A stretch of 64,000 nucleotides of DNA, from assembly GCA_900320565.1 (NCBI GenBank), contig ONSR01000004.1:9647-73646 (forward strand), read 5' to 3'. Under the pieces are notes generated by a model. It worked only from the letters and a program-made list of their open reading frames with translations. It was not told where the DNA came from and ran no database searches. The position numbers and the translations under genes were made by a program. Position 1 is the stretch's first letter. Every line of letters begins with the position of its first letter. Shown one piece after another: positions 7,173 to 61,900 of this stretch. This stretch comes from an uncultured Prevotellaceae bacterium. Its GTDB lineage: Bacteria > Bacteroidota > Bacteroidia > Bacteroidales > Bacteroidaceae.

Positions 7173-7200
7173 TAAACTCTAAACTCTAAACTTTCAACTT
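7173..7200. repeat. heptamer array (taaactc)x4 abutting the pckA promoter
   Basis: taaactc taaactc taaactt tcaactt. The same array occurs at 20700-20727. Confidence 0.9.
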
Positions 7201-7207
7201 TATTTCG

Positions 7208-7215
7208 TACCTTTG
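7208..7215 (+). promoter_or_regulatory. -7 box TAccTTTG (pckA)
   Basis: Part of the 17-mer tcgtacctttgcagccg, which also occurs at 2322-2338. Preceded by a (taaactc)n array. Confidence 0.65.
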
Positions 7216-7271
7216 CAGCCGTTTAAGAGACAATATAATCTAAGTATAACTATAAATTCAACATCAAAACA

Positions 7272-8885
7272 ATGGCAACAGTTAATTTGGAACAGTACGG
7301 CATCACCGGTAGCACCGTGATTGCCCACAACCCCTCTTACGAGGAGCTCTACAAGGCTGAGATCGACCCCGCGCTCACAGGTTATGAGGTAGGACAGGAG
7401 ACAGAACTCGGCGCAGTAAACGTGATGACAGGCGTCTTCACAGGTCGTTCGCCCAAGGACAAGTACATCGTTGACAACGACGAGAGCCACAACAACGTAT
7501 GGTGGACCTCTGAGGAGTACAAGAACGACAACCACCCCATGAGCGAAGAGGTATGGGCTAAGGTAAAAGACATTGCTATCAAAGAGCTCTGCGGTAAGAA
7601 GCTTTATGTTGTTGACGCATTCTGCGGCGCAAACGAAGCTACTCGTCTGGCTGTTCGCTTCATTGTAGAGGTTGCTTGGCAGGCTCACTTCATCAAGAAC
7701 ATGTTCATCCAGCCCACAGAGAAGGAGCTTGCTGAGTTCAAGCCCAACTTCGTCATCTTCAACGCCAGCAAGGCTAAGGTTGAGAACTACAAGGAACTCG
7801 GCCTGAACTCCGACACTTGCGTAGCTTTCAACACAAAGGCTCGTCAGCAAGTCATCATCAACACCTGGTACGGCGGTGAGATGAAGAAGGGTATGTTCTC
7901 CATGCAGAACTACTACCTGCCTCTGCAGGGCATCGCTTCTATGCACTGCTCAGCCAACACCGATATGGAAGGTAAGAACACAGCTATCTTCTTCGGTCTC
8001 TCTGGCACAGGCAAGACAACCCTCTCTACCGACCCGAAGCGTCTCCTCATCGGCGACGACGAGCACGGATGGGACGACGAGGGCGTCTTCAACCTCGAAG
8101 GCGGTTGCTACGCTAAGGTTATCAACCTCTCTAAGGAGAACGAACCCGACATCTATGGTGCCATCAAGCGTAACGCTCTCCTCGAGAACGTAACAGTTGA
8201 CAAGGACGGCAAGATCGACTTCGCCGACAAGAGCGTCACCGAGAACACTCGCGTAAGCTATCCCATCGAGCACATCGAGAAGATTGTGAAGAAGGTCAAT
8301 GGTAAGAGCGCAGGCCCAGACGCAAAGAACGTCATCTTCCTCAGCGCAGATGCATTCGGCGTACTGCCTCCCGTATCTATCCTGACTCCCGAGCAGACCA
8401 AGTACTACTTCCTCTCTGGCTTCACAGCAAAGCTTGCTGGTACAGAGCGCGGCATCACAGAGCCCACTCCCACTTTCTCAGCTTGCTTCGGTCAGGCTTT
8501 CCTCGAGCTGCATCCCACAAAGTATGCTGAGGAACTCGTTAAGAAGATGGAGAAGAGTGGTGCTAAGGCTTACCTCGTTAACACAGGTTGGAACGGCACA
8601 GGCAAGCGCATCTCAATTCCCGACACACGTGGCATCATCGACGCAATCCTTGATGGCAGCATCCTGAAGGCTGAAACAAAGAAGATTCCTTTCTTCGACT
8701 TCGAGGTGCCCACAGCACTGCCCAACGTAAATCCCGCTATCCTCGATCCACGCGACACCTACGCAGAGGCAAGCATCTGGGAAGAGAAGGCAAAGGATCT
8801 CGCTGCCCGCTTCATTAAGAACTTCAAGAAGTACGAAGGCAACGAAGCTGGTAAGGCTCTCGTTGCTGCAGGTCCAAAGCTGTAA
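7272..8885 (+). CDS. pckA: phosphoenolpyruvate carboxykinase (ATP)
   Basis: 537 aa. [13 protein letters not shown] kinase-1a motif and IGDDEHGW. Confidence 0.95.
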
Positions 8886-8958
8886 GGCTGCAAGACCGAA
8901 AGGCAACGAGCTCTAAAAAGAGAACTCGTCCCTGCAGGCCCTCAGTTCTAAAAACACA

Positions 8959-9035
8959 GCACGCCTAGTTGGCAAACTAGGCGTGCCTAAATGATAAACA
9001 CAGCGTGCTTAGTTAACAAACTAAGCACGCTGTGT
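8959..9035. repeat. 22-bp phased array, GCACG family (3.5 units)
   Basis: gcacgcctagttggcaaactag / gcgtgcctaaatgataaacaca / gcgtgcttagttaacaaactaa / gcacgctgtgt. Confidence 0.85.
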
Positions 9036-11157: not shown

Positions 11158-12651
11158 ATGGCAATAAGTGAAGATTTAGGTGCCCTAATCAGGGAGAACT
11201 TCGACCATAAACCGACGAAAGAGCAGGAAAAAGCAATCATTTTGCTTGCCGACTTTTTGCTTTCAAGAGAGCGTGATACGGTTTTCCTCCTGAAAGGATA
11301 TGCCGGCACGGGCAAGACTTCTCTGCTGGCAGCCTTGGTGCGGACGCTCGGTATGTTGCAGCAAAGGGTCATGTTGCTTGCCCCAACCGGCAGGGCAGCC
11401 AAGGTGTTGTCGTCCTACGCGGGCGTTCCAGCATACACTATACACAGGAAGATCTACCGCCAGAAGTCTATCACGGACATGGATGTCTTTCAGAACGATG
11501 TCAACCTTAGGCAGGATACTCTGTTCATCGTAGATGAGGCGTCGATGATTGCGAATGATGCCCACGACACAACCGTCTTTGGTACTGGCCGTTTGCTCGA
11601 CGATTTGATGCACTACGTCTATTCCTGCGAGGGCTGCCGACTCGTGCTGGTGGGCGACACGGCACAGCTTCCGCCGGTCGGCGAGGAAGAGAGTCCGGCC
11701 CTGAGCCGCACGATGCTTGAGGGTTATGGGATGGAAGTGACGGAACTCCAGCTGACCCAAGTTGTCCGTCAACTCGAGGAGTCCGGCATTCTTTGGAACG
11801 CCACGATGCTGCGAAGCCTCATCCAGAACGACGAGATGTTCGAGTTTCCCAAGCTCAGAGGCAAGACCTTCCCCGACGTCAAAGCACTCCCCGGCGATGA
11901 ACTCATCGAGGCGCTCGAGCAGAGTTACCGTAAGTACGGAACCGACGGAACGATAGTCGTGACCCGAAGCAACAAGCGTGCCAATATATATAATAATGGT
12001 ATAAGAGCCCGCATCCTCGACCACGAAGAGGAACTCTCCAGCGGCGACCTGATTATGGTGGCGAAGAATAATTATTATTGGAATGACCGAGAACAGCAGC
12101 AAGGGGCAAGGGGCAAGGAGCAAGAGAACAGCAATCCTCTTGCCCCCTGCCCCTTGCCCCTTGCCCCTTTCTCCTTCATCGCCAACGGCGACATCGCGGT
12201 GGTTCGCCGACTTCGAAACGAGAGGTCGTTCTACGGATTCCGTTTCGCCGACGCCATCCTTGAGTTTCCCGACTACGACAACCGCGAGATGGAGGTCACC
12301 GTCCTGCTCGACACCCTGCAGAGCGAAGCGCCTGCCCTTACCCGACAACAGCAGGAAGCGCTCTTCCAGGGCGTTTGGGAGGACTATCCCGAACTGACGA
12401 ACCGACGCGACAGGATGAAGAAATTGCGCCAAGACCCCTACTACAACGCCCTGCAAATCAAGTATGCCTATGCCGTGACCTGTCATAAGGCTCAGGGCGG
12501 ACAATGGGAGCACGTCTATATCGACCAAGGTTACATCACCGAGGAGATGCTCACGCCCGACTATTTCCGCTGGCTCTACACAGCCATCACCCGCGCTACC
12601 GAACAGGTCTATCTCGTCAACTGGCCCGACTCGGCACTTTCCGACGCCTAA
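11158..12651 (+). CDS. RecD/Pif1-like ATP-dependent DNA helicase
   Basis: GYAGTGKT (Walker A), LFIVDEASMI (Walker B), VLVGDTAQLPPV, AVTCHKAQGGQWEHVYI. Confidence 0.85.
   Translation: MAISEDLGALIRENFDHKPTKEQEKAIILLADFLLSRERDTVFLLKGYAGTGKTSLLAALVRTLGMLQQRVMLLAPTGRAAKVLSSYAGVPAYTIHRKIYRQKSITDMDVFQNDVNLRQDTLFIVDEASMIANDAHDTTVFGTGRLLDDLMHYVYSCEGCRLVLVGDTAQLPPVGEEESPALSRTMLEGYGMEVTELQLTQVVRQLEESGILWNATMLRSLIQNDEMFEFPKLRGKTFPDVKALPGDELIEALEQSYRKYGTDGTIVVTRSNKRANIYNNGIRARILDHEEELSSGDLIMVAKNNYYWNDREQQQGARGKEQENSNPLAPCPLPLAPFSFIANGDIAVVRRLRNERSFYGFRFADAILEFPDYDNREMEVTVLLDTLQSEAPALTRQQQEALFQGVWEDYPELTNRRDRMKKLRQDPYYNALQIKYAYAVTCHKAQGGQWEHVYIDQGYITEEMLTPDYFRWLYTAITRATEQVYLVNWPDSALSDA
12096..12170. repeat. 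inverted heptamer arms (gcaaggg)n / (ccccttg)n inside the helicase gene
   Basis: Left arm 12099-12126 and right arm 12137-12167 are near-perfect reverse complements. Confidence 0.9.
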
Positions 12652-12693
12652 CCAGACGGGTCTCGTCACAAAAATTGACACGTCATCTTCGTT

Positions 12694-12759
12694 GCATATA
12701 CATGTATGTGCAATTGCATGTACATGTATATGCAATTGCAAGTACATGTACGTGCAATA
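12694..12759. repeat. 22-bp phased palindromic array, TACATGTA/TGCAATTGCA family (3 units)
   Basis: gcatatacatgtatgtgcaatt / gcatgtacatgtatatgcaatt / gcaagtacatgtacgtgcaata. A sister array lies at 32336-32401. Confidence 0.9.
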
Positions 12760-12911: not shown

Positions 12912-13883
12912 ATGAATATACTCGTTACAGGAGCGAACGGACAGTTGGGCAACGAGATGCGCATCGTGGCTAAGGACTCGGCGGACCATTACATCTTCAC
13001 CGACGTCACTCAGCAAGAAGGCGCAGAGACCACGTTCCTCGACATCACCGACCTCGACGCCATCCGCGCGATGGTCAAGGAGAACGACGTCCGCGCCATC
13101 GTAAACTGTGCCGCGTGGACTAACGTCGATGCAGCCGAGGCTCCCGAGAATCGTGCGCTCGTCGAGAAGCTCAATGCGACAGCCCCCGAGAACCTGGCTC
13201 GCGCCATGAAGGAAGTGGGCGGTTGGCTCGTGCAGATATCGACCGACTACGTGTTCGGCAAGGAGCCTTACAACACGCCTTGTCGCCCCGACCAGCAGGG
13301 CACACCGACCGGCGTCTATGGCGAAACGAAGAAGATGGGAGAGGAGCGAATCCAAAAAGTATTTAATGAAAAATTAAAAATTAAAAGTGAAAAATTAATA
13401 GCAAGCGAGGCAGAAGGTTCAATGGTCAATGGTCAATGGTCAATGGTCAATGGCGGCTACATCATCATCCGCACGGCCTGGCTCTACAGTGAATACGGCA
13501 AGAACTTCTGCAAGACGATGCTCAACCTCACGGCCACCAAGCCGCAGCTCAAGGTTGTCTTCGATCAATGCGGCACTCCGACGTATGCCCTCGACCTGGC
13601 ACGCGCGATACAAGTCATCCTCCAGAAGCCCGTGCAAGGCATCTACCACTTCTCGAACGAAGGCGTCTGCTCGTGGTACGACTTCACGCAGATGATTGCC
13701 CGCATCGCCGGACACAAGGACTGCGACATCCAGCCCTGCCTGTCTTCGGAATATCCAAGTCCCGTGAAGCGTCCCGCCTACTCCGTCCTCGACAAACGCA
13801 GCATCCGGGAAACCTTCGGCATCGAGGTTCCGTACTGGGTCGATTCACTCGAAAAATGCATTAAGAACATCATTGAAAATTGA
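12912..13883 (+). CDS. rfbD: dTDP-4-dehydrorhamnose reductase
   Basis: MNILVTGANGQLG start, YGETK, IIRTAWLYS. Carries a roughly 33-codon repeat insertion. Confidence 0.9.
   Translation: MNILVTGANGQLGNEMRIVAKDSADHYIFTDVTQQEGAETTFLDITDLDAIRAMVKENDVRAIVNCAAWTNVDAAEAPENRALVEKLNATAPENLARAMKEVGGWLVQISTDYVFGKEPYNTPCRPDQQGTPTGVYGETKKMGEERIQKVFNEKLKIKSEKLIASEAEGSMVNGQWSMVNGGYIIIRTAWLYSEYGKNFCKTMLNLTATKPQLKVVFDQCGTPTYALDLARAIQVILQKPVQGIYHFSNEGVCSWYDFTQMIARIAGHKDCDIQPCLSSEYPSPVKRPAYSVLDKRSIRETFGIEVPYWVDSLEKCIKNIIEN
13368..13453. repeat. mosaic element in rfbD: (aaaaatt)-type arm + spacer + (aatggtc)x4.7 arm
   Basis: gaaaaattaaaaattaaaagtgaaaaattaata ... aatggtcaatggtcaatggtcaatggtcaatgg. Confidence 0.9.
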
Positions 13884-13963
13884 AGATTGAACATTGAACA
13901 TTATTCCGACCCGAAGACTTAGGGCGCAGCCCAATGGTCAATGGTCAATGGTCAATGTTCAAT
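13872..13963. repeat. hairpin-type heptamer element across the rfbD stop and the rfbD-rfbC spacer
   Basis: Left arm attgaaa attgaag attgaac attgaac att, a 30-nt GC-rich spacer, right arm aatggtc x3 aatgttc aat. Confidence 0.9.
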
Positions 13964-13975: not shown

Positions 13976-14536
13976 ATGGAAGTAATTAAGACCGCCATCG
14001 AAGGCGTACTTATCATAGAACCACGCATCTTCAGGGATGCACGCGGGTACTTCTTCGAATCATTCTCGCAAAGGGAGTTCGAAGAGAAAGTCGGCCCCAT
14101 CAACTTTGTACAAGATAACGAAAGCATGTCCTCTTATGGGGTGATGCGCGGACTGCACTTCCAGCGCCCACCCTACACGCAGAGCAAACTCGTTCGCTGC
14201 GTCAGGGGAGCCGTTCTGGACGTAGCCGTCGATATCCGCAAAGGGTCTCCGACCTACGGACAGCACGTCGCCGTCGAACTCACAGAAGAGAATCATCGTC
14301 AGTTCTTCATTTCGAAAGGCTTCGCCCATGGTTTTGCCGTACTGAGCGAGACTGCCGTCTTCCAGTACAAATGCGATGAGTTCTACCATCCCGAGGCAGA
14401 CGACGGTATCGCCATAACAGACCTAAGCCTCGGCATCGACTGGCGAATCCCCATGGAGAAGGCAATCCTGAGCGAAAAAGACACTAAGCATATTAACCTG
14501 AAGGACTTCGAAAGTCCGTTCACAGACCCTCTCTAA
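13976..14536 (+). CDS. rfbC: dTDP-4-dehydrorhamnose 3,5-epimerase
   Basis: FRDARGYFFESF, MRGLHFQ, KLVRCVRGAVLDVAVDIR. The track start at 13934 lies inside a heptamer array, so I trimmed it to MEVIKT. Confidence 0.9.
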   Translation: MEVIKTAIEGVLIIEPRIFRDARGYFFESFSQREFEEKVGPINFVQDNESMSSYGVMRGLHFQRPPYTQSKLVRCVRGAVLDVAVDIRKGSPTYGQHVAVELTEENHRQFFISKGFAHGFAVLSETAVFQYKCDEFYHPEADDGIAITDLSLGIDWRIPMEKAILSEKDTKHINLKDFESPFTDPL

Positions 14537-14555
14537 CTCCCCCTTAAAGGGGGAG
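14524..14555. repeat. left arm of the CCCCCTTAAAGGGGG palindromic element flanking the DUF559 gene
   Basis: agaccctctctaactcccccttaaagggggag is identical to 27911-27942. Confidence 0.9.
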
Positions 14556-14572
14556 AACACAGGCTGAAAACA

Positions 14573-14938
14573 ATGAAATGGCAAACGGCAGACACAATAG
14601 AATATGAACTTCTAAAAAGCCATTCAAAGGCAAAACGCGGCAATCAGACAGAAGCAGAGTCTGTTTTCTGGCAAATGGCGAAAGGCAGCGGACTAGGACA
14701 AAAGTGCAGAAGACAATACATTATCGGAGAGTATATCGTTGACTTCTTCTTTCGGCAATCAATGCTAATAGTGGAAATAGACGGAGGATACCACTTCACA
14801 GAAGAACAACAAAAGGAGGACATAACGAGACAAAACTGGTTGGAGCAAAAAGGATATAAAGTTCTGCGGTTCACCAACGAACAAGTCTTATATGACACAG
14901 ACAATATGATTAACGAATTAAAAAAGCATCTAATCTAA
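14573..14938 (+). CDS. DUF559 (Vsr-like endonuclease fold) protein
   Basis: YIVDFFF...LIVEIDGGYH...GYKVLRFTN pattern of DUF559. A/T-rich third codon positions, unlike the flanking rfb genes. Confidence 0.8.
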   Translation: MKWQTADTIEYELLKSHSKAKRGNQTEAESVFWQMAKGSGLGQKCRRQYIIGEYIVDFFFRQSMLIVEIDGGYHFTEEQQKEDITRQNWLEQKGYKVLRFTNEQVLYDTDNMINELKKHLI

Positions 14939-14939
14939 T

Positions 14940-16115
14940 ATGAGTAACAACAGTTCATCCCCCTTTAAGGGGGACAGAGGGGGTCTCAACATCGTCATAA
15001 CTGGTGGAGCCGGTTTCATCGGCAGTCACGTAGTACGCCTCTTTGTCAACAAGTACCCCGAATACAAGATCATCAACCTCGACAAGTTGACCTACGCAGG
15101 CAACCTCGCCAACCTCAAGGACATCGAGGACAAGCCCAACTACAAGTTCGTGAAGATGGACATCTGCGACTTCGACGCCTTCTACAAACTGATGCAGGAC
15201 GAGAAGATAGACGGCATCATCCACCTCGCAGCAGAGAGTCACGTGGACCGCAGCATCAAAGACCCCTTCACCTTTGCTCGCACGAATGTGATGGGAACAC
15301 TCTCCCTCCTGCAAGCTGCCAAGCTCTATTGGGAAAGCCTGCCAGAGCGGTACGAAGGCAAACGCTTCTATCACATCTCGACCGACGAGGTGTACGGCGC
15401 TCTGGAGATGACCAACCCGGAAGGCATAAAACCGCCTTTCACCACGACAGCCAGCAGTTCGGAGCATCATCTGGCATATGGCAAGGACTTCTTCTACGAG
15501 ACAACGAAGTACCAGCCACACAGTCCGTACTCCGCTTCGAAAGCCTCCAGCGACCACTTTGTCCGCGCTTTCCACGACACTTACGGCATGCCGACCATCG
15601 TCACGAACTGCTCCAACAACTACGGCCCCTATCAGTTCCCCGAGAAACTGATTCCTCTCTTCATCAACAACATACGCCATCGCAAGCCTCTTCCCGTTTA
15701 TGGTAAGGGCGAGAACGTGCGCGACTGGCTCTACGTCGAAGACCACGCTCGTGCCATCGACACGATCTTCCACAAGGGACAGATTGCCGAGACGTACAAC
15801 ATCGGCGGCTTCAACGAGTGGAAGAACATTGATATCATCAAGACTGTCATCAATACAGTTGACCGTTTGCTTGGCCGTCCAGAAGGAGCCGACATGGACC
15901 TCATCACATACGTCACAGACAGGCTTGGTCACGACGCACGCTACGCCATCGACTCCACCAAGCTGCAAAAGGAACTTGGATGGGAGCCGTCGCTCCAGTT
16001 CGAAGAGGGCATCGAAAAGACCGTCAAGTGGTACCTCGAGAACGAGGCTTGGATGGACAACATCACAAGCGGCGACTACGAGAAGTACTACGAGGAGATG
16101 TACAAGAATCGCTAA
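14940..16115 (+). CDS. rfbB: dTDP-glucose 4,6-dehydratase
   Basis: ITGGAGFIGSH, YSASKASSD and the long Bacteroidota-type form. The first roughly 16 codons are encoded by a repeat arm. Confidence 0.9.
   Translation: MSNNSSSPFKGDRGGLNIVITGGAGFIGSHVVRLFVNKYPEYKIINLDKLTYAGNLANLKDIEDKPNYKFVKMDICDFDAFYKLMQDEKIDGIIHLAAESHVDRSIKDPFTFARTNVMGTLSLLQAAKLYWESLPERYEGKRFYHISTDEVYGALEMTNPEGIKPPFTTTASSSEHHLAYGKDFFYETTKYQPHSPYSASKASSDHFVRAFHDTYGMPTIVTNCSNNYGPYQFPEKLIPLFINNIRHRKPLPVYGKGENVRDWLYVEDHARAIDTIFHKGQIAETYNIGGFNEWKNIDIIKTVINTVDRLLGRPEGADMDLITYVTDRLGHDARYAIDSTKLQKELGWEPSLQFEEGIEKTVKWYLENEAWMDNITSGDYEKYYEEMYKNR
14958..14986. repeat. right (inverted) arm of the element flanking the DUF559 gene
   Basis: tccccctttaagggggacagagggggtct is an imperfect reverse complement of the left arm. 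Confidence 0.85.
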
Positions 16116-17130: not shown

Positions 17131-19812
17131 TTATGCTGTGAGAAGCTCGATGAGTTTCTCGACGGCAGCATGTATGCCATCGGTGTTCTTGCCACCAGCT
17201 GTGGCGAAGTGAGGCTGGCCGCCGCCACCGCCTTGCATCAGTTGAGCAGCCTCGCGAATGTTCTTGCCGACGTTCACACCTGCTGCGACGGCACTATCCG
17301 AAGCTGCCGCCGTGAGCAAAGGCTTGCCGCCAGCAACGGAACCAATCACTACGATACTGTTCTCCACCTCTGCCCGGAGTTGGAAGGCAATGTCCTTAAC
17401 GAACTCCGGACCAAGTGGTGTGATAGCCTTCAAGACCTTGAAGCCGTTCACTTCCGTCTGCTTGGAGAGTATCTCTTTCTTGAGTTCAGCAGCCCTTTCG
17501 TGCATGATGTCTTCCACTTGCTTCTTGAGGTCAGCATTATCGTTGATGGCCTTCTGGATAGTTCCAACCAAGTCGGGAGCGTTATTGAAGAGCCCTCGCA
17601 GACCCGTTATCATGTCCTGCAACTTGTCCATCTGCTCTTCGACTGCCTTACCTGTTATGGCTTCGATACGACGCACACCTGCAGCCACACTGCTTTCCGA
17701 CATGATGCGAACCATACCGATGCAGCCTGTACTGCTTGCATGACAACCGCCGCAGAACTCGACACTCGTGCCGAACTGGATGACGCGCACCTTGTCGCCG
17801 TACTTCTCTCCGAAGAGGGCGATAGCGCCCAGCTTCTTGGCTTCCTCAATCGGCGTATCGCGATATTCCTGAAGAGGCAGGTTCTGACGGATGCGCTCAT
17901 TCACGAGGTGCTCCACCTCACGCAGCTGTTCGGGCGTCACCTTCTCGAAGTGAGAGAAGTCGAAGCGCAGGTAGTCGGGCGTCACAAGCGAGCCTTTCTG
18001 CTCCACATGGTCGCCGAGAACCTCCTTGAGGGCTTGGTCGAGGAGGTGCGTACAAGTGTGGTTGGCCTCGATAGCACGGCGACGCTCCACATCCACGCAA
18101 GCCATGAACTCGGCTTCAGGATTGCTTGGGATGCGCTCCAGCAAGTGAACACTTACGCCATTCTCTTTCTTGGTGTCAATCACCTTGATGGTCTCCTGCT
18201 CATTACAGATGACGCCTGAGTCGCCAACCTCGCCACCCATCTCTCCGTAGAAAGGAGTCTGGTCGAAGATTGCCTCGTAAACGACGCCTTTCTTCTGCTT
18301 CACCTCACGATACTTGACGATGTGGCAAGTGTATTCCGTGTAGTCGTAACCGACGAACTTCTGTTCTGATTGACCATTGACCATTGACGATTGACCATTA
18401 TTTTCTTCGGTGCCGGAATGGTCAATGGTCAATGATGAATGGTCAATGATGTGCCAATCGCCTGCCTCAACCTGGGCGGCATTGCGAGCACGCTCTTTCT
18501 GCTTCTGCATCTCAACGTTGAAGCCAGCCTCATCGACCGTTAGACCATTCTCGCGACAGATAAGTTCGGTGAGGTCCAAGGGGAAGCCATAGGTATCGAA
18601 AAGCGTGAAGGCTTTCTCGCCGGCAATCTCTGTCTTGCCTGCTGCCTTTGCCTCCTTCATCACACCATCCAGCAGTTTGATGCCTGTTTCGAGTGTGCGG
18701 AGGAAACTCTCTTCCTCTTCCTTCATCACTTTCGTAATGAGTTCCTTCTGACCTTCAAGTTCCGGATAGGTTGCTCCCATCTCCTGAATCAGGACGGGCA
18801 GCAGGCGGTAGATGAAGGCCTGCTTCTGTCCGAGGAAGGTATAGGCGTAGCGTACGGCGCGACGCAGAATGCGACGGATGACATAGCCGGCTTTTGCGTT
18901 GCCAGGAAGTTGACCGTCTGCGATGCTGAAAGCAATGGTGCGAAGATGGTCGGCCACTACTCTCATAGCCACATCGATGTCCTCCTTCTCGCCATAACGG
19001 AAGCCGCTGAGGTCGCCGATGGCTTTGATGATGGGCTGGAAGACGTCGGTATCGTAGTTGGACTGCTTGCCCTGAATGGCGCGAACCAAGCGTTCGAAGC
19101 CCATGCCGGTGTCGATAACGTTCATTCCAAGCGGTTCGAGATGTCCATCAGCCTTGCGCTCGTACTGCATGAAGACGATGTTCCAGATCTCGATAACCTG
19201 CGGGTCGTCCTTGTTGACGAGTTCGCGGCCAGGCACTTTAGCCTTTTCCTCAGCCGAACGACTATCGAGATGAATCTCCGAGCAAGGTCCGCAAGGACCT
19301 GTGTCGCCCATTTCCCAGAAGTTATCATGCTTGTTGCCGTTGATGATGTGGTCGGCCGGAACGTGCTTCAGCCAGTAGCCTGCAGCCTCATCATCGCGGA
19401 CAAGATTCTCTTCAGGACTGCCCTCGAAGACCGTCACATAGAGGTCCTTCGGGTCGAGCTTCAGCACATCAACGAGGTATTCCCACGCCATATCGATGGC
19501 TCCCTCCTTGAAATAGTCGCCGAACGACCAGTTGCCGAGCATCTCGAACATCGTGTGGTGATAGGTATCATGCCCGACTTCTTCCAGATCATTATGCTTT
19601 CCGCTGACACGCAGACACTTTTGGCTGTCCGCACGTCGGCGGGGTTCCGGGTCGCGAGTGCCAAGGATGATGTCCTTCCACTGGTTCATGCCGGCATTGG
19701 TAAACATCAGGGTCGGGTCATCCTTCACTACCATCGGGGCAGACGGAACAATCTTATGACCCTTCGACTCGAAGTACTTAAGGAACGAGTCGCGTATCTC
19801 ATTTGCTGTCAT
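17131..19812 (-). CDS. alaS: alanine--tRNA ligase
   Basis: [27 protein letters not shown] and the HTCTHLL editing motif. The first track ATG (19827) lies in a heptamer arm, so the second ATG is preferred. Confidence 0.95.
18369..18450. repeat. inverted heptamer arms (attgacc)n / (aatggtc)n inside alaS
   Basis: Arms at 18369-18399 and 18417-18450, separated by a 17-nt spacer. Confidence 0.9.
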
Positions 19813-19820
19813 AGTTCTAT

Positions 19821-19855
19821 AATTCATAATTCACAATTCATAATTCATAATCATT
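19821..19855. repeat. heptamer arm (aattcat)x5, left flank of the alaS/merR promoter region
   Basis: aattcat aattcac aattcat aattcat aatcatt. Confidence 0.9.
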
Positions 19856-19876
19856 CAATACGCATGAAAATGCGTG

Positions 19877-19884
19877 CAAATGTA
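19877..19884 (-). promoter_or_regulatory. -7 box TAcaTTTG (alaS)
   Basis: Reverse complement of caaatgta, upstream of the alaS start. Confidence 0.55.
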
Positions 19885-19937
19885 CGAAATATTTATGAAT
19901 TATGTGCTATGATTTGTAATTTAAGAATTATTTTTTG

Positions 19938-19945
19938 TATTTTTG
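19938..19945 (+). promoter_or_regulatory. -7 box TAttTTTG (merR-like gene)
   Basis: tatttttg lies 46 nt upstream of the ATG at 19992. Confidence 0.5.
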
Positions 19946-19951
19946 CAACAG

Positions 19952-37090: not shown

Positions 37091-37104
37091 AAGTACTGCT
37101 TCTT

Positions 37105-49370: not shown

Positions 49371-49403
49371 AATTCATAATTCTTAATTCATAATTCATAA
49401 TTA
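49371..49403. repeat. single heptamer arm (aattcat)x5 between the two SNF genes
   Basis: aattcat aattctt aattcat aattcat aattatc. Confidence 0.85.
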
Positions 49404-49421: not shown

Positions 49422-50822
49422 TCACTTCATGAAGAGCGGGAAAAGTTCGTTCACGAATATGACGAGTATGCCGATGGGGGCAACCCAACGGATGAGGAAA
49501 AGCAGCGGTTTCATCGCACGAATCGAGATGCTGCCGTCGTTGGTCAACTGCGCATCGACGAGTTTCCTGTCGAGCCACCAGCCGACAAACATAGTTATCA
49601 GCAGTCCGCCCAAAGGCATCAGGAACTTCGTGACTGTATAGTCGAACAAATCAAAGAAGCCGCGACCGAAGATGGTCACTTCCTGCCAAGGTCCGAAGGA
49701 CAGCGAACAGAAGCTGCCCAGCACGAGGCAGACGATGGTGACGATGGCTGCAGCGCGCTTCCTGCTGTGGCTGAAGTGCTCGGAAATGAAGGCGGTGCAG
49801 ATCTCGTGCATGCTTATGCTGCTCGTCAAAGCTGCCAGCAGGAGCAAGACATAAAAGAGGAGCGAGAAGATGTAACCCGCGACGGGCATATCTCCGAAAG
49901 TGAGCAGGAAGACGTTCGGCAGGGTGATGAAGACGAGGCCGGGGCCTGCGTCGGGCGCTATGCCTACGCTAAACACCGTGGGGAATATGATGAATCCGCT
50001 CAGCACGGCAACCATCGTATCGATGATGCAGACGTTCATGGCCGAACTCACCAGTCTTGTTTCGTTGTTGAAATAGGATGCGTAGGTCACCAGGCAACCC
50101 AAGCCGACGCTCAGCGAAAAGAAGGCTTGGCCCATGGCCCCAAGTATGACTTCGGGCGTAACCTTGCTCAGGTCGGGTTTCAGCAGGAAGCGGATGCCTT
50201 CGCTTGCGCCTGGCATCATCAACGAGAAGCAGACCAGGAGCACGATTATCGCGAGAAGCATGGGCATCATGAGTTTCGAGTATCGCTCGATGCCGTGCCG
50301 AATGCCTCGGGCCACGACGAGGTGCGTCAAGAGGAGGAACACTGCAACGTATAGGATGGGCTGCAACGGGTCGGAAACAAACGCGTTGAAAGCGGCCGCA
50401 AAGTCAGCAGGCTGTTGTCCGTTGTCTGCAGTCTGTAGTCCCTGCAACTGACCGAGAGCCGATTGTATGGTGTAGTGAAGGGTCCATCCGGCTACCACAG
50501 AATAGAAAGACAGCACAAGGAATCCGCCCAGCACACCCATGATGCCGGCTGCCACCCATAGCTTGCCGGGCGCAAGCTTCTGGAAGGCTCCGATGGCGTT
50601 GCTGCGTGCGGAGCGTCCGATAACGAACTCGCTTATCATGACCGGCATGGCAATCAGGAAGATGAATCCCAGATAGATGAGGATGAAAGCAGCCCCGCCG
50701 CCCTTTCCCACCTCGGTGGGGAAGCGCCAGATGTTGCCCAAACCGACAGCTGAACCTGCCGCCGCCAATATGACTCCCAGCTGGCTTCCGAAACTTCCTC
50801 TTGATGCGTTACCTGATTGCAT
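49422..50822 (-). CDS. sodium-dependent transporter, SNF/NSS family (paralog)
   Basis: GSAVGLGNIWRFP. Start trimmed to MQSGN, downstream of a TAtaTTTG box. Confidence 0.85.
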   Translation of the reverse strand: MQSGNASRGSFGSQLGVILAAAGSAVGLGNIWRFPTEVGKGGGAAFILIYLGFIFLIAMPVMISEFVIGRSARSNAIGAFQKLAPGKLWVAAGIMGVLGGFLVLSFYSVVAGWTLHYTIQSALGQLQGLQTADNGQQPADFAAAFNAFVSDPLQPILYVAVFLLLTHLVVARGIRHGIERYSKLMMPMLLAIIVLLVCFSLMMPGASEGIRFLLKPDLSKVTPEVILGAMGQAFFSLSVGLGCLVTYASYFNNETRLVSSAMNVCIIDTMVAVLSGFIIFPTVFSVGIAPDAGPGLVFITLPNVFLLTFGDMPVAGYIFSLLFYVLLLLAALTSSISMHEICTAFISEHFSHSRKRAAAIVTIVCLVLGSFCSLSFGPWQEVTIFGRGFFDLFDYTVTKFLMPLGGLLITMFVGWWLDRKLVDAQLTNDGSISIRAMKPLLFLIRWVAPIGILVIFVNELFPLFMK

Positions 50823-50850
50823 ATGGCTGTATTTTTCTCTAAATTCGTTG

Positions 50851-50858
50851 CAAATATA
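50851..50858 (-). promoter_or_regulatory. -7 box TAtaTTTG (SNF transporter operon)
   Basis: The reverse complement of caaatata lies 28 nt upstream of the start at 50822. Confidence 0.55.
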
Positions 50859-50871
50859 CATAAAAAAGCCG

Positions 50872-50879
50872 TACATTTG
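50872..50879 (+). promoter_or_regulatory. -7 box TAcaTTTG (vanZ-like gene)
   Basis: 28 nt before the ATG at 50908. Divergent from the SNF promoter. Confidence 0.55.
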
Positions 50880-50907
50880 CAGCAAAATACGGAAAAAGAG
50901 TCGTTAT

Positions 50908-51279
50908 ATGCTACACAAATACCTACGCCGCTACCCTATCGCACTTCTCGTGGCAGCCTGCATCGTGTTGCTCTCGCTGTTGCCCATACCGGATATGAAG
51001 GTCGATGTGAATGTTCCGCTTGCCGACAAATGGACACACATGGTGATGTACGGCGTGCTGACGCTCATCATCTGGTTCGAATACCGACGCTCGCACAGCC
51101 AATGGAACGCGCAGAAGTTGGTGCTTTATGCTTTCCTGGCACCCATCGCATTTGGCGGGCTGATGGAATTGGCACAGCTGTATCTGACCACTTGCCGCAG
51201 CGGCGAATGGCTCGACTTTGCCGCCAACACCATCGGCGTCTGCATCGGTACCGTCGGCGGGCTGCTTATGAAAAGGTGA
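50908..51279 (+). CDS. VanZ family protein
   Basis: 123 aa, four hydrophobic segments, DKWTHMVMYGVL pattern. Trimmed from the track ORF to the ATG after the promoter box. Confidence 0.65.
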   Translation: MLHKYLRRYPIALLVAACIVLLSLLPIPDMKVDVNVPLADKWTHMVMYGVLTLIIWFEYRRSHSQWNAQKLVLYAFLAPIAFGGLMELAQLYLTTCRSGEWLDFAANTIGVCIGTVGGLLMKR

Positions 51280-51353
51280 ATAGGTAAAAAAGTAAAAAGG
51301 TGAAAAACTGTTGATTCAGTCTTTCACCTTTTCAATTTTATATCTTTTCAATT
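51269..51353. repeat. hairpin-type A-rich heptamer element between convergent vanZ-like and vanX-like genes
   Basis: Core stem aaaggtgaaa / tttcaccttt. The arms contain the stop codons of both genes. Confidence 0.8.
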
Positions 51354-52154: not shown

Positions 52155-52245
52155 TCATCCCCCTATAGGGGAAGAGCCAACGCCCTATAGGGGAATGCTC
52201 ACTCCCCTATAGGGGATTTAGCACTCCTCCCTAAGGGGATTTTTA
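52155..52245. repeat. 22-bp phased array of CCCCTATAGGGG palindromes (4 units)
   Basis: Palindrome centres at 52165/66, 52187/88 and 52209/10, plus a degenerate fourth near 52232. Confidence 0.9.
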
Positions 52246-56823: not shown

Positions 56824-56840
56824 TGTGTTTGTTTATTTAT

Positions 56841-56890
56841 AGGAGGCCCTAGGAAGTCCTAGGCTTTCCTAGGATGTCCTAGAATGTCCT
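56841..56890. repeat. 10-bp phased CCTAGG array (5 units), oxidoreductase-DUF1080 spacer
   Basis: aggaggccct aggaagtcct aggctttcct aggatgtcct agaatgtcct. Confidence 0.9.
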
Positions 56891-58461: not shown

Positions 58462-58552
58462 AACATCCCCTATAGGGGAAATGCAAACGCCCTATAGGGG
58501 AATGACAATCCCTCCATAGGGGAATCGCAATTCCCCTATAGGGCGTTGAACG
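58462..58552. repeat. 22-bp phased array of CCCCTATAGGGG palindromes (4 units)
   Basis: Centres at 58472/73, 58494/95, 58516/17 and 58538/39. Unit aaacgccctataggggaatg nearly matches unit caacgccctataggggaatg at 52178. Confidence 0.9.
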
Positions 58553-58605
58553 GCCCGAAACGCCGCCTTGAGATATGTCCCCTAAGTCTTTGAGTAAGGA
58601 GCCAT

Positions 58606-58642
58606 AAAGAAGGGAGGTGCCTACTCTGTGGCACCTCCCTTC
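58606..58642 (-). terminator. hairpin after the 52-aa small ORF
   Basis: 13-bp stem gaagggaggtgcc / ggcacctcccttc. Weak T tract (ttta) on the minus strand. Confidence 0.5.
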
Positions 58643-58667
58643 CTATATAGAACAGATGAGTTGTGAA

Positions 58668-58826
58668 TCACCAGCCAAAGTCCCAGCCGTCTTCGCCGAC
58701 GGCTTCTTCTTTGACGAATTCCTCGTTGCCGGGTTCGTCCGACATCTGTATGCTTGTTACCAGAAGTGCATCAGCCACCTCGGCCATGTCCACCTTTACG
58801 ATGGGTGAAATATATGTCTTTTTCAT
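58668..58826 (-). CDS. small ORF (52 aa), paralog of 63039..63218; not in ORF track
   Basis: My translation: MKKTYISPIVKVDMAEVADALLVTSIQMSDEPGNEEFVKEEAVGEDGWDFGW*. The ATG lies 1 nt after the upstream stop, and a hairpin follows the ORF. Confidence 0.45.
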   Translation of the reverse strand: MKKTYISPIVKVDMAEVADALLVTSIQMSDEPGNEEFVKEEAVGEDGWDFGW

Positions 58827-58910
58827 CTTACTTGAGTATCTTTTTGCCGTTAATGATGTTGACGCCTTTCTGCATCTTGTTCATGCGCTGACCTGCAAGG
58901 TTGTAGATGG
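58807..58910. repeat. about 104-bp dispersed duplicate (partner 63199..63302): CTD end, stop codon, start of small ORF
   Basis: Collinear by eye with roughly one mismatch per ten bases over the first 85 bp or so. Confidence 0.8.
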
Positions 58911-61900
58911 ATTGACCATTGACCATTGACCATTTACTATTGAGGTCGCTGATGCCAGTCTCATCGTCACCGAAGATGATATTGAAGGCTTTGACGCTGG
59001 AAGACTCTTCGATATGGCTGCGGAAGCCAGTCACATTCTCGCCTGTGTAAGGTTTGAAGGCAGGACCACTCTGCAGGGTATATACATTTGCTGCGATGCT
59101 TGTCCTGGCCTTTGTAGCCACACTGCCCACGAGGTCGCTCGTGTAATCAGCCTCATTGCTCTCGACGGTGAAGTCGTAAGTGCCTTCCGCTGCCTCAACA
59201 AGGACGCCTGTGCCTGCCTTCACGGCTTCTACTTCGTCAAAGTGGATGTATGTGTCGTTCAGGGTGGCGGCATAGAGTTTAACTCCTGCAGGAGCCGTCA
59301 GTCCGACGGGGCTGTAGAAGGTGGCCAGGCCAAGGCTCTTGACGGTAACGGGCACGGAGGTGACATCCTCTACAATCCAAGCATAGCCCTGATCGTTGTT
59401 GTAGCCGCTGCCACGGTCGATGGTGCCGTTGCTGTCCCTATGATAGGTGTAGCGGCTATTCGTCTGGATGGTGTATTTGCCCTCGTAGTAGCTGTTAGGC
59501 TCGATGGCTGCCTTGTAGTTGGTGCCAACAGGAGCCAGACCCTTGGCGTTGCCGTCGAGGTACTGTCCTGTCGTGTAAGACACCAGTCCGTCGTTGCTAT
59601 AGAACCAGAGCGTGGATGCCTCGTCGGCAGCTGCCACCTTAACCTCGCCGCTAACGACTGCCAGATAGGCTTCGGACTGCGTGCTCTTGAAGCGGTAGAA
59701 ATGTCCGGGGCGAGGAGTCTTCACTGCCTCGGCCTCTGCCTGCGCCTTGTCGAAGAAGTATTGGTTCAAGGTGATGTCCTTGATGTTGTGCGCCTTCTGA
59801 TAAACAAGGCAATAGCCTGTCGGAAGGTGGGTTTCGTCCTTTGCACTCTCCTCGAAGAGGATGTCCATTGTGCCGTCGCCATTGCCAAGGAGAATGGAGT
59901 ATGCTCCCCAGTTGTGTGTCACGTTCATGCCTTGCGTCCAGCTTGCACCGCCAGCAGTAGAGAAGTCGGCTGTGGTGAAGCCCGTTGCCTTGGGCAGGGC
60001 GATGAAGTAATACTGAATCTCGCGACGCTGCGGGCTGCTGGTCATAGGAGCCGTCTCGACGATGACGGTGTTCTTCTCGCCGTAAGCATCGTAGGCTTCT
60101 ACCATCTCCACGTCACCATTGCAGGACGTGGCGGCAGCATTGTTCCACTGGTTGGTGGGTCCCCACTGGCCTGTAGCCGTGTCGAAGTCGCTATAGTTGA
60201 ATACATTCACATAGCGAGAGGTGCTGCCCTTGCCGACAAGCAGAAGGTCGCCGTCGGGAAGTTCCACTACATGTGCCTCGTCGCCATTGTTGGCAATCTG
60301 GCCGCCAAGCACTTTCCATGTGGCGCCGAAGTCGTCGGAATAGACCACCACGTCGCCGCCGTTCACGTCAACAGCATTGTAGATACGGTTGTACTGGGCG
60401 CCTTCTGCCTTGCGAACAGACTGGATAATTCTGCCACTGGTGAAGAAGGAACGCACGATGCCGCTGCTGCCGTCGGCTGCACGGATGCCTGCATCCACGA
60501 ATGCCTGCATGAGGGCTGGCTGGATGTATTCGTAGTTGCCCCATGTCTCGCCGCCGTCGGTAGAGCGCCAGGCAACACATCCTTGCTGCTGCTGGCTGAC
60601 GTCAGGGTTATAGACAGAGCTCGTCCAGCGGGCATTACCGCCGCAGCAAACCATCAGGACGTCGTTGCCGGAGTTGCCGGGCGTATTGTCTGCCACAGCT
60701 GCAGGGTCGCCGAAGCTCCACTCGATGACGTTTGCTGTGTTCACGCCCCAGTTGCCCTGTGCCACACGGATGGCAGGACTCCATGTCTCGCCGCCGTCGT
60801 CACTGTAGCGACGCTCGATGCTCGTCGGGCCAATGCCCACATCGGTGTTGCCGGGACGGTAGTCGGCAAAGGCAATGATGCGACCGCTCTTTGTGCGGAT
60901 GATGGCAGGCAAACGATAGGCTTCGGTCATGTCTTCGTTGTAGTCGTACCAAAGGTTCAGGCCGTTGCCTGTGGAAGCCGTGTAGTTAGCCACAAGGGTA
61001 GCGCCGTCGGCCACTGAGGTAAGTTCACCGGCCTCAATGCTTGTGCCATAGTCTGTGCCGTCGATTGTGAAGCCCGTGAAGTCGTAGCCGCGATAGCTCG
61101 TAGCAATGGCGGTGAAGGTCATGTCGAGGTATTGCAGTCCCGTCACCTCGGTGTCGGCATAGAGATACTTGTTGAAGGTAGAGCCGTCGCTCAGTGCCAT
61201 AGTAATCTTGCCTGCACGTGTGTTCTCAGCCTCTGTGGCACCAGTCACGTTGACGGAAAGGTTGATGGTCTTCGTGTTGAGCAGGACTTCGATGGTTGCA
61301 ATGACATTGGTGGGGTCGAAGTCAGCTGCAGCGATGATGGCACAGGAGTTGCCTTCGTCTGTTGTCGTCCATGTATCGAATATCGCGCCTGTTGTCTTGC
61401 CTGATGTCGCATTCAGTGTCTTGCCGTTGCCTTGAATCTTGAACAAGCCGTGCGACACGCTGGTCAATGTGATTGCGACGGGAATGTTGCCTAAAGCCGT
61501 ACCGTCGCAGGAGACGAACTTCTCCTCTGCTATGCTCCAGAGGTAATACTTGCCTTCGTAGGAAATGATGGCGAAGTTGTTGACGCTATAAGCGCTGTTC
61601 TTAACCGTATTGGCCAGGCTGCCGTCAACAGTGGTATAAGTGCCGCGCGGGCACTTGATGGTGTAAGCCTTGCTGTTGCTCAACTCGCTGAGAGCCTCCA
61701 CAAGACCTTCCTTCTTATTTATATTAACCTTGATGGTGGTGTTTGCATCAGCAATGGTGCCTTCGGTCGTGATGTCGTAGGCAAAAGTGCTGTAGCCGTT
61801 GGTGAAGTCAGCAGGGATGTTGATGCTGCTGTTAGGCATGACGGTCTCTGTATGGGTCAGACCAGTAGCCACGCCGTTGACGTACTGTTCGTATGTCACA

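Follow-up and report, generated by a model that had tools for sequence, protein, structure and literature searches.

Hairpin repeats around a DUF559 nuclease gene suggest a possible new type of selfish DNA in rumen Bacteroidales

Introduction

The genome of an uncultured Prevotellaceae bacterium from the cattle rumen, of the order Bacteroidales (assembly GCA_900320565.1) carries, in a stretch of 64,000 nucleotides of contig ONSR01000004.1 (positions 9,647 to 73,646 of the forward strand; hereafter, the window), a wealth of short repeats, many of them in frame within essential genes. One class looks like a reduced copy of a small cassette around a nuclease gene, which suggests a type of selfish DNA not described before. 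The repeats sort into three co-occurring classes, namely a G/C palindromic mini-element, heptamer arrays, and 22-bp palindromic arrays. The mini-element is a defined sequence that is dispersed in both orientations, resides in frame within genes, and varies in presence between relatives, and inverted copies of its unit bracket a gene encoding a DUF559 protein, a Vsr-like nuclease of the PD-(D/E)XK type. The explanation that we favor, with a probability of about 0.5, is a nuclease-associated family of selfish hairpin cassettes that would resemble both the REPINs (hairpin-forming doublets of repetitive extragenic palindromic (REP) sequences) and the Rickettsia palindromic elements (RPEs), and that would be tolerated as translated loops, with heptamer slippage as a linked process.

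An initial annotation of this DNA had regarded the repeats as one combinatorial system and compared them with REP sequences, bacterial interspersed mosaic elements (BIMEs), and the in-frame palindromic elements of Rickettsia, a comparison that proved apt. The modular character is borne out by G/C half-units fused to heptamer arms (28730–28795; 39130–39200), by common hotspots in proteins, and by a common length class. The same annotation mentioned DUF559 as a possible partner gene, and of all its hints this one proved the most useful: inverted element units bracket the gene.

The G/C palindromic mini-element

The mini-element has the form AGACCCCTCTAAATCTCCCC-TTAAA-GGGGAGA...GGGGGAGTTAGAGAGGGTCT, measures 78–80 nt, and is palindromic. 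It constitutes an inverted dimer of a hairpin unit of ~34 nt, each unit being composed of a GACCCCTCTAA tail and a C4–5/TTAAA/G4–5 hairpin. A full copy of 80 nt is located at 27911–27990 (minus strand), in frame in a pseudouridine synthase gene (26520–28184), where it is read as DPSKSPLKGETSYSVSSPFKGELERVS. A metagenome scan with one hairpin 19-mer retrieved 120 loci (fetched comparison loci are designated here by L-numbers and protein homologs by P-numbers), and the unique copies (n = 49) share the consensus AGACCCCTCTAAATCTCCCCTTAAAGGGGAGACTTCCTGnCCTGAGTCCTCCCCCTTTAAGGGGGAGTTAGAGAGGGTCT. Their lengths have a mode of 78 nt, from GACCC to GGGTC, which corresponds to a unit, a spacer of ~11 nt, and an inverted unit; a variant of 68–69 nt and longer composites also occur. 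Over 24 aligned copies, the mini-element is 92% conserved, and in its ~34-nt unit, with a stem of 7 bp and a loop of 5 nt, 96.7% of the cells are paired. Because the search pattern itself dictated the left hairpin, that side is uninformative on pairing, whereas the right hairpin is compensated, with pair 52–64 being CG in 18 copies, UA in 6, and unpaired in none. Terminal inverted repeats are present (AGACCCCTCTAA... and ...TTAGAGAGGGTCT), and the ends, AGACCC...GGGTCT, exhibit neither a GTAG nor a CGTC tag.

The copy at 27911–27990 is 94% identical to the consensus of 23 metagenome copies, and its orthologous sites are filled in L200, L249, and L257. The CCCCCTTAAAGGGGG palindromes reported by the initial annotation are pieces of this larger, defined element. 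In addition to the full copy, four further units or remnants are found in the window, at 14524–14555, 14956–14987 (blastn match 14958–14974), 28763–28795, and 39130–39168.

Complete copies of up to 85 nt from rumen metagenomes lie without exception (35/35) within open frames of 223–1297 codons, in different genes, compared with 87.7% of random windows from the same loci. Within open reading frames (ORFs), the element is found in both orientations and only stop-free frames are used, on both strands, which gives rise to two peptide families depending on orientation, DPSKSPLKGE...FKGELEGV and KTLSNSPLKGE...VSPLRGDLEGS. Judging from these preserved frames, the inserts are presumably translated. 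Translational bypass or splicing of the inserts was also considered and is unnecessary, since all copies are in frame, free of stop codons, and of lengths divisible by three. No direct repeats, and thus no target-site duplication, were detected around the 35 complete copies, which are bordered by A-rich DNA at the 5' end and by T-rich DNA at the 3' end, and the comparison of filled and empty sites indicates that 12–23 nt of the target are replaced. An autonomous element was sought as distant paired ends in the fetched loci, and none was found. Protein searches with the element peptide gave three weak matches when word-indexed and seven at E ≤ 0.001 when exhaustive, numbers that, with so short a query, provide no usable census.

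Two side observations were made. In the exhaustive search, P0124 (1305 aa) and P0125 (1200 aa) displayed seven and five separate stretches, respectively, matching the element peptide, and the corresponding genes may each carry many element copies. Moreover, the 6854-nt locus L242 (MWVV01002069.1) has the same sequence of ~120 nt at both ends, including a GGGGTCTCCCCTTAAAGGGGAGAGACCC hairpin, and may be a circular molecule.

The DUF559 nuclease cassette

A longer partner with the ends of the mini-element exists in the window at 14524–14987 (plus strand), and it encodes a nuclease-fold protein, not a known transposase. This cassette consists of an inverted unit (14524–14555), an ORF (14573–14938) assigned by Pfam to DUF559/MTES_1575, and a second inverted unit (14956–14987), which now encodes a new N-terminus, MSNNSSSPFKGDRGGL, for the epimerase that follows downstream. 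The 464-nt block is missing in L001, the locus of the nearest species-level genome (rumen metagenome-assembled genome (MAG) RUG12391, with alanyl-tRNA synthetase (AlaRS) 93% identical and DNA ~88–90%), in which 22–23 nt stand instead between the conserved flanks TTCAC and AACATCGTC. The nucleotides replaced by the block include the start codon of the epimerase, and a new start codon is supplied. The nuclease ORF occupies, or is missing from, one exact position bordered by conserved sequence, a pattern by which homing endonuclease genes are recognized.

DUF559 orthologs of other species, with 77–98% identity, keep both units. In L341, DUF559 is found among element units in a clearly different gene context, and in L339 among units in a variant of the epimerase locus. 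Moreover, two high-GC contigs (61–63% GC), retrieved as chance matches to the 19-mer, each carry a DUF559 homolog with 33–39% identity, flanked in both by inverted CCCTCTCCCC-TTAAA-GGGGAGAGGG hairpins and by GGGGTGAGGGG/CCCCTCACCCC. These examples are L288 (about 330–860) and L278, and gene-less short versions of the CCCTCTCCCC-TTAAA-GGGGAGAGGG unit are common in other non-rumen loci, e.g., L240, L250, L263, and L267. Since the units bracket DUF559 both here and in homologs, the 78-nt element looks like a gene-less derivative of the DUF559 cassette, and we infer that DUF559 is the mobilizing enzyme. Regarding structure, the DUF559 protein matches PDB 3HRL with E = 2e-14 and, marginally (E = 0.08), the homing endonuclease PDB 3R3P; the Vsr/DUF559 clade contains a homing endonuclease (PMC3424549).

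Insertion hotspots in QueA and AlaRS

QueA ranges from 402 to 503 residues in this clade, compared with 346–347 in solved bacterial QueA structures. The alignment of 120 QueA homologs reveals four insertion hotspots, three of them variable in length. At these three, empty sites of 5, 7, or 8 residues most often gain 22 residues, giving 27, 29, or 30, a gain common to many unrelated insert sequences, with side classes of +15 and +29 residues (±21 nt). One G/C cassette family occurs at sites 1, 3, and 4, with all three being filled by G/C cassettes in P0064, and heptamer-arm hairpins recur at sites 3 and 4 (NEELRMKN...SDSSLFTLHSS). Both orientations are used, as the reverse complement of the site-4 cassette of L194 encodes a peptide family known from other sites.

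In the window, hotspot 1 (39130–39200, plus strand) is occupied in frame by the left half of the G/C unit followed by an AAATCGC-type arm, read as PQPPLGGDLRAEEIANSKSSNSQC. Hotspot 2 (39346–39374, plus strand) contains (AATTCAA)x4, read as EFKIQNSKFKL; its last three and a half units are identical in four taxa whose genes are 77–97% identical, and the two more distant of these four differ at two positions of the first unit. Site 3 exhibits presence and absence between L193 and L194. Hotspot 4 (39842–39925, plus strand) carries an 84-nt cassette formed by (AATGAAG)x5, the spacer GGGCGGGACG, and an AAATYGT arm, which is 95% identical (80/84) to that of L193, as opposed to 83% in the flanks. This cassette is absent from the 97%-identical L192, where 18 nt are found, a net difference of 66 nt. 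At the same site, the heptamer cassette of the window and L193 and the G/C cassette of L194 are both 84 nt long with identical slot boundaries, a pattern that favors the replacement of one cassette by another over their independent insertion. AlaRS has a single hotspot, which is filled by a heptamer hairpin in the window, by a GACAACA array in L078, and by the 78-nt G/C element in L268. Heptamer and G/C cassettes share protein hotspots and a length class.

As a separate observation, hotspot 2 is a fixed slot of 15 residues in which lineages encode EFKIQNSKFKL, KWTMDNGQWTL (P0070), TLTIDHSTLTI, or others, and its heptamer array seems to have been rewritten without a change in length.

Heptamer arrays

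The heptamer units are A/T-rich and constitute a genome-specific vocabulary (AATGGTC, AATTCAT, AAATCGT, and others), with arrays located more than 1 kb apart sharing units in 7% of cases within a genome versus 0.7% between genomes. Arrays of the same unit have no flanks in common. Many arrays operate as hairpin arms, although only about half of the arms are paired, and not most of them as previously noted. The combination of gaatgaa and aaatYgt arms reported at both 34748 and 39849 holds in part: only one GAATGAAG copy stands beside the AAATCGT array at 34748, while a 7-7-8-8 module, AAATCGY-AAATWGY-AAATYGTC-AAATNGTC, does recur at 34765, 39169, and 39892.

Several arrays lie in frame within genes confirmed by Pfam. 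A hairpin with (GCAAGGG)n and (CTTGCCC)n arms occupies 12099–12169 (plus strand) in a RecD-like helicase; the unlike arms (AATTAAA)n and (TCAATGG)5 are found at 13365–13453 (plus strand) in RmlD, where L001 is 66 nt shorter; and a hairpin of (ATTGACC)n and (AATGGTC)n is placed at 18369–18451 (minus strand) in AlaRS, a site that is empty and 63 nt shorter in L001. To these are added the three QueA arrays (39130–39200, 39346–39374, and 39842–39925), (GAGGGAA)n at 46828–46860 (plus strand) within a GH115 gene, and (ATTGACC)n at 58911–58943 (minus strand) within the gene of a BNR-repeat protein. Variant units within genes remove stop codons, namely ATTCATC in alaS and AATTAAG in queA, the latter eliminating an in-frame TGA at hotspot 4. 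Length changes by whole units are also observed, as one 7-nt indel separates the window from L192, and the insert classes lie 7 aa, i.e., 21 nt, apart.

Five arrays, all in sense orientation, end 4–12 nt upstream of start codons, and three of the five are (GAATTAT)n. These include an inverted (GAATTAT)n pair at 19809–19983, in which each array is in sense orientation and placed 9–11 nt upstream of one of two divergent starts (alaS and a MerR-like gene), both being absent from L001; (GAATTAT)n at 49371–49402 (minus strand), placed 8 nt before the start codon of an SNF-family transporter gene, this start being supported by a 450-aa ortholog in L193; and the AAATCGT module at 34765–34797 (plus strand), 4 nt upstream of the start of a HIT-family gene. 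Two other arrays abut a promoter -7 box. One is (AAACTCT)n at 7167–7202 (plus strand), directly upstream of the promoter box of the phosphoenolpyruvate carboxykinase (PEPCK) gene, which is assigned to the TAnnTTTG type of Bacteroidetes promoters; the other is (TCTAAAC)x4 at 20698–20726 (plus strand), directly upstream of the box TACCTTTGCA. The latter array and its promoter box are 100% conserved with L001, whereas the adjoining intergenic DNA diverges.

Hybrids in which a G/C half-unit is joined to a heptamer arm connect the two classes physically. Besides hotspot 1 of QueA (39130–39200), a hybrid at 28730–28795 (plus strand) combines a CATTGAA-like heptamer arm with the right half of the G/C unit (TCTCCCCCTAAAGGGGGTTAGGGGGTCT), and the apparently orthologous site in L312 is filled by a complete 78-nt element, whose downstream flank, TTACTTGAT, is the same. 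At 51269–51335 of the window, a (TGAAAAGG)n arm and its inverted partner lie downstream of a peptidase M15 gene, and the relative L237 has arms resembling these on either side of a G/C element. Inverted (AATTCAT)n and (ATGAATT)n arms are also located between two convergent genes (37004–37091), with one 7-nt unit differing from L192. Finally, the near-inverted arms (CATTGAA)n and (CAATGGT)n at 13871–13963 (plus strand) span the stop codon of rmlD and the 5' leader of rmlC and are absent from L001. L086 has the right arm only, in a different upstream context, an arrangement that suggests recombination breakpoints at the spacers between arms. The contig L086 (noted at 1–260) encodes an identical RmlC next to another upstream gene, with the (CAATGGT)n leader arm kept and an AGTTTAA-like array on the opposite side.

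Heptamer arrays were also noticed in viruses. Period 7 is dominant in the viral loci (n = 92), with 243 arrays, and the viral contig L128 (IMGVR_UViG_3300035392_000147; 34% GC) carries 14 period-7 arrays in 12.7 kb, whose units are related (TAATTCA, ATAACTC, TGAGTTA).

22-bp and 10-bp arrays

The third class comprises eight 22-bp arrays belonging to at least six sequence families, rather than the four initially counted, which are placed after stop codons or between genes and mostly fold into long hairpins. Three copies of the palindromic unit TTGCAnnTACATGTAnnTGCAA (66 nt) form one long hairpin in an intergenic region at 12692–12758 (z = -8.1), and a second TTGCAnnTACATGTAnnTGCAA x3 array is located at 32334–32400. 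L001 carries TTATAGATACATGTATGTATAA x3 at two sites, one of them orthologous to the array at 12692–12758, so that the change from one unit to the other is compensated and has occurred in concert, the symmetry being kept. At 20346–20431 (plus strand), GTTAAGTTTGCAAAGATGGCAC x3.9 is enclosed by a G/C stem 10 nt past a stop codon, and a different 22-bp array follows the ortholog of the preceding gene in L001. Other arrays end in a hairpin after a stop codon (25703–25762, plus strand), follow the queA stop codon with CACGTCTAGTTTGCCAnTTAGA hairpins and a terminal T-run (40260–40321, plus strand), or lie between convergent genes in 4.9 copies with weak folding (46987–47093, z = -1.9). A 12-nt palindrome, CCCCTATAGGGG, with a 10-nt spacer is repeated in about four copies at 52159–52242, and a second CCCCTATAGGGG array is found at 58467–58543. 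In addition, a 10-bp array with CCTAGG palindromes occupies 56840–56890. Period 22 is also prominent among the long periods in other Bacteroidales, with 18 arrays versus at most 8 for neighboring periods.

Three 22-bp copies make up 66 nt, the same quantum as in the in-frame inserts, and this size together with co-occurrence forms the basis for a possible tie of the 22-bp arrays to the other two classes. Two known origins were considered and rejected. The CCCCTATAGGGG arrays are not read as CRISPR, since the 10-nt spacers are alike, the window contains no cas genes, and the arrays have no Rfam match; Tn7 or Mu end sites and plasmid iterons do not account for the 22-bp period, since the units are many and unrelated, all chromosomal and intergenic, and the window has no transposase or replication gene.

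A perfect tandem duplication of 44 nt (2 x 22) was noticed at 37131–37218, near the 3' end of a DUF2027 gene (37105–37869, minus strand). It is absent from L192, shifts the frame, and changes the C-terminus, giving 254 aa versus the 247 aa called in L192.

Repeat census and comparison with relatives

Tandem Repeats Finder reported, in the window, 24 rows of period 7 with 3–6 copies each, 9 rows of period 22 that correspond to the 8 arrays, the 44-nt duplication, and one clear period-10 array (56840). When rows were merged and at least 2.5 copies required, periods 7 (20 arrays), 22 (8), 8 (2), and 10 (2) were obtained and nothing else. A strict scan yielded 14 arrays of period 7 and none of periods 5, 6, or 8–12, and 50 dinucleotide-preserving shuffles contained no period-7 array. 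Thus, the repeat richness initially described is confirmed (20–24 period-7 and 8 period-22 arrays, versus 0 in 50 shuffles), with period-7 repeats over-represented relative to other unit lengths (14–24 arrays) and only 7 and 22 enriched among periods above 3. Loci with the G/C element have densities of 0.25/kb for period 7 and 0.056/kb for period 22, compared with 0.044/kb and 0.012/kb in loci of 80 Bacteroidales species, and both repeat classes are, therefore, 5–6 times denser in the former.

The comparison of insertion sites with orthologous empty sites, which the initial annotation had proposed, identified empty sites in L001 (alaS, rmlD, and two spacers) and L192 (QueA site 4). The elements absent from L001 are those of alaS (63 nt shorter), rmlD (66 nt shorter), the rmlD–rmlC spacer, and the alaS–merR spacer; over the corresponding 22 kb, heptamer arrays number 1 in L001 and 9 in the window, and G/C palindromes 0 and 5, respectively. 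Between the window and L192 (97% identical), only three repeat-related differences are found, namely one 7-nt unit (37059–37091), the window-specific 44-nt duplication (37131–37218), and the 84-nt cassette at QueA site 4.

Proposed explanation and alternatives

According to the explanation that we favor, the genomes of a clade of rumen Bacteroidales would have been colonized by small, hairpin-forming selfish cassettes. The mini-element of 78–80 nt would represent an internally deleted, non-autonomous form of the ~460-nt DUF559 cassette. The DUF559 nuclease, or a partner enzyme, would generate breaks, and the elements would be copied in during their repair, by a homing-like or break-repair route instead of classical transposition; such a route would leave no target-site duplication, replace 12–23 nt of the target, and allow either orientation. 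Copies would survive where the frame is kept in tolerant surface loops and would be translated there. Heptamer arrays may serve as a second module, forming the arms of cassettes of the same size, substituting for a G/C half-unit, and changing in length by 7-nt slippage, so that only steps of 21 nt would survive within genes, and arrays would also be retained beside start codons and promoters. The 22-bp palindromic arrays would be a third class of hairpins, at gene ends. Both the break-repair route and any causal tie of the nuclease to the heptamer and 22-bp arrays are inferred. A bolder and only tentative version holds that DUF559 nucleases might be the engines of palindromic mini-elements across phyla, which would spread as nuclease-made breaks are repaired from a template, without a transposase or a duplicated target, the rumen clade having specialized in in-frame residence in essential genes, and the heptamer and 22-bp arrays being repair by-products or alternative arms.

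Several observations weigh against a nuclease-driven cassette family. The closest DUF559 homologs examined (P0140, P0141, P0147, and P0232) are all located at the rmlC–DUF559–epimerase locus, and the protein identical to that of the window and three close homologs lie between rmlC and the epimerase every time; with a single conserved locus, the gene shows no visible sign of multiple copies or of recent movement in the clade, and DUF559 could be an ordinary repair nuclease in a repeat hotspot. A RAYT (REP-associated tyrosine transposase) or an insertion sequence (IS) transposase may exist elsewhere in the genome, beyond the 64 kb. Simple insertion does not explain the constant gain of 22 aa by unrelated cassettes with identical slot boundaries. 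Arrays are stable among strains with 97–100% identity except for one unit. Heptamer arrays are also present, at lower density, in Bacteroidales loci and viral contigs lacking the G/C element and, as same-unit arrays share no flanks either, they may arise independently by slippage. Finally, some arrays are more conserved than their surroundings ((TCTAAAC)x4 and QueA sites 2 and 4), which hints at a host function.

One alternative is classical non-autonomous transposition, in which REP/REPIN-type DNA or MITEs (miniature inverted-repeat transposable elements) would be moved by a RAYT (IS200/IS605-like) or an IS transposase encoded elsewhere, with DUF559 as a passenger or neighbor. The inverted doublets of ~34-nt imperfect palindromes, 78–80 nt long, have a REPIN-like architecture, the lack of target-site duplication is typical of IS200/IS605-type single-strand transposition, and both REPs within genes and CGTC REPs that lack an enzyme have been described (PMC3733652), to which the fixed locus of the closest DUF559 homologs examined can be added. 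Nevertheless, transposition appears unlikely, because the 64 kb contain no transposase or RAYT, the elements bear no GTAG or CGTC tag, the replacement of 12–23 nt of target is foreign to such transposases, and units of different sequence bracket DUF559 in two high-GC, apparently unrelated contigs, a repeated coincidence that chance would hardly produce. It is quite unlikely that no mobility is involved at all and that a lineage-specific mutational bias (7-nt slippage, 22-nt duplications, and palindrome-building template switching) acts in situ on unconstrained spacers and protein loops. Such a bias would fit the 7-nt indel and the fresh 44-nt duplication that separate the window from L192, the lack of flanking homology between same-unit arrays, the arrays of viral contigs, and the resemblance of the left arm at QueA site 4 to the codons of the empty site (QGNEE versus QMKNEE). 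Moreover, many bacteria have an excess of heptanucleotide repeats, with slippage as the proposed cause (Mrazek 2007, as cited in PMC4679880 and PMC4692102). However, in situ mutation fails on a 78-nt sequence that is 92% conserved over 24 aligned copies (of at least 35 recovered within ORFs) in unrelated genes and both orientations, on one cassette family at three QueA sites, on the 7-7-8-8 module shared by three sites of the window, and on the ten-fold sharing of units within genomes.

Selection for host function, by which arrays at starts and promoters would tune translation or transcription, hairpins at gene ends would terminate transcripts or stabilize mRNA, and in-frame cassettes would be useful linkers, would account for the five sense arrays 4–12 nt upstream of starts and the two that abut a promoter -7 box, for the 100% conservation of the TAAACTC array and its promoter with L001, for the site-2 array of QueA that is mostly identical in four taxa, for the site-4 cassette conserved at 95% versus 83% in the flanks, and for the strong folding of 22-bp arrays after stop codons; TAACTGA heptamer repeats beside start codons have likewise been proposed as regulator binding sites (PMC4679880). 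Yet, elements in essential genes are present or absent between close relatives, one protein slot is filled by unrelated sequences, both orientations are used, and function leaves origin and spread unexplained, complementing the other readings rather than replacing them; as the whole account it is decidedly improbable. An artefact of assembling or sequencing low-complexity DNA in a MAG has a practically negligible probability: metagenome assembly can collapse or expand such repeats, but at least eight contigs of this species (99.8–100% identity), which stem from independent samples and different assemblers, carry identical arrays, which argues that the arrays are not created by assembly, and reading frames are preserved and orthologous elements exist in other species.

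Comparison with known systems

A literature search for the element sequences, or for heptamer repeats in Prevotella and Bacteroidales, returned nothing specific. Each of the closest analogues has at least one defining feature that is absent or not established here, and it is quite possible that the tie to a nuclease defines something new. In common with the terminal inverted repeats of IS-derived MITEs, those of the mini-element delimit it, whereas the fixed-length target-site duplication of MITEs is not seen. The RPEs, reportedly described by Ogata et al. in 2000, are also palindromic selfish DNA placed in frame in housekeeping genes and translated as extra loops, with no transposase known. 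However, they belong to another phylum and measure about 100–150 nt instead of 66–84, and the elements described here have interchangeable modules including heptamer arms, quantized sizes, recurrent protein sites, and a candidate nuclease partner. Given the difference in phylum and length, homology to the RPE-1 to RPE-8 consensus is unlikely; RPE-4 and RPE-6 have been classed as CGTC REPs (PMC3733652).

The REP/REPIN–RAYT systems of Pseudomonas and Enterobacteria (PMC3116915, PMC3733652) share inverted doublets (~80 nt) of imperfect palindromes (20–40 nt each) that fold into long hairpins, numerous scattered copies, a putative enzyme gene bracketed by units as in a 'REPtron', and concerted evolution within genomes. 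They differ in having a GTAG/CGTC tag, in being predominantly extragenic instead of intragenic and in frame (35/35 here), and in bracketing a Y1 HUH transposase gene rather than one for a PD-(D/E)XK protein (DUF559/Vsr-like); moreover, target nucleotides are replaced here. The free-standing and intron-borne homing endonuclease genes of the Vsr-like 'EDxHD' family (I-Bth0305I, PDB 3R3P; PMC3424549) share the small PD-(D/E)XK gene, the precise site of presence or absence, and a break-repair route, proposed for the present elements, that gives no target duplication. In the present case, however, there is no intron or intein, hairpin inverted repeats bracket the gene, and gene-less mini-copies are numerous.

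The heptamer construction, which the initial annotation considered unassignable to any described family, does have precedents in other bacteria, as PMC4679880 and PMC4692102, citing Mrazek 2007, report an over-representation of heptanucleotides in Calothrix, in Xanthomonas and Nostoc (GGGAATC/GGGGAYT), and in Beggiatoaceae, Cyanobacteria, and Bacteroidetes (TAACTGA). These repeats, among them the short tandemly repeated repetitive (STRR) sequences of Calothrix and Nostoc, also consist of 7-nt units in 2–6 or more copies at many loci, at times in inverted pairs and often a few nt upstream of starts, and slippage has been proposed for them. Here, in contrast, several A/T-rich units exist instead of one, and they form the arms of hairpin cassettes of about 66–84 nt, fused to G/C hairpin units and placed in frame in essential genes. 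The fixed 22-bp phase, likewise left unassigned there, has a possible counterpart in BrickBuilt, a minisatellite mini-element of 23 nt in Porphyromonas gingivalis (PMC4596501). Both occur in the order Bacteroidales as intergenic, head-to-tail, spacerless units of ~22–23 nt near gene ends, with promoter-like motifs in the units. They differ in the period (22 versus 23) and in the many unrelated units per genome, mostly palindromes in ~3 copies, of the present arrays; BrickBuilt has a leader and a tail with small inverted ends.

Significance

DUF559 is a large family without an assigned role, and its physical tie to dispersed hairpins offers a function that can be tested and, possibly, a new way for DNA to move. 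The elements add 20–100 residues to core enzymes of an abundant rumen lineage, extending QueA from 346–347 to 402–503 residues and affecting AlaRS, RmlD, and a pseudouridine synthase as well, which matters when genes are called, protein families modeled, strains typed, and metagenomes assembled. The recurrent, size-quantized insertion at fixed protein sites constitutes a natural experiment on insertion tolerance. Furthermore, the start-proximal heptamer arrays parallel unexplained repeats of Beggiatoaceae and Cyanobacteria, which suggests a shared mechanism.

Other features of the window

The annotated genes of the 64-kb window are all housekeeping or glycan-use genes, and no transposase, RAYT, Y1 transposase, or reverse transcriptase is found among them. 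The Rfam scan of the window returned one tRNA only and no other known RNA family. This tRNA gene (20506–20580, minus strand) adjoins a 22-bp array and the promoter-linked heptamer array; it is nearly identical in L001, whereas the spacers around it diverge. Two pairs of paralogs are arranged in tandem, namely two GH115 genes (40490–43714 and 43736–46975), with DNA ~74–78% identical, and two SNF-family sodium symporter genes (48010–49362 and 49422–50885).

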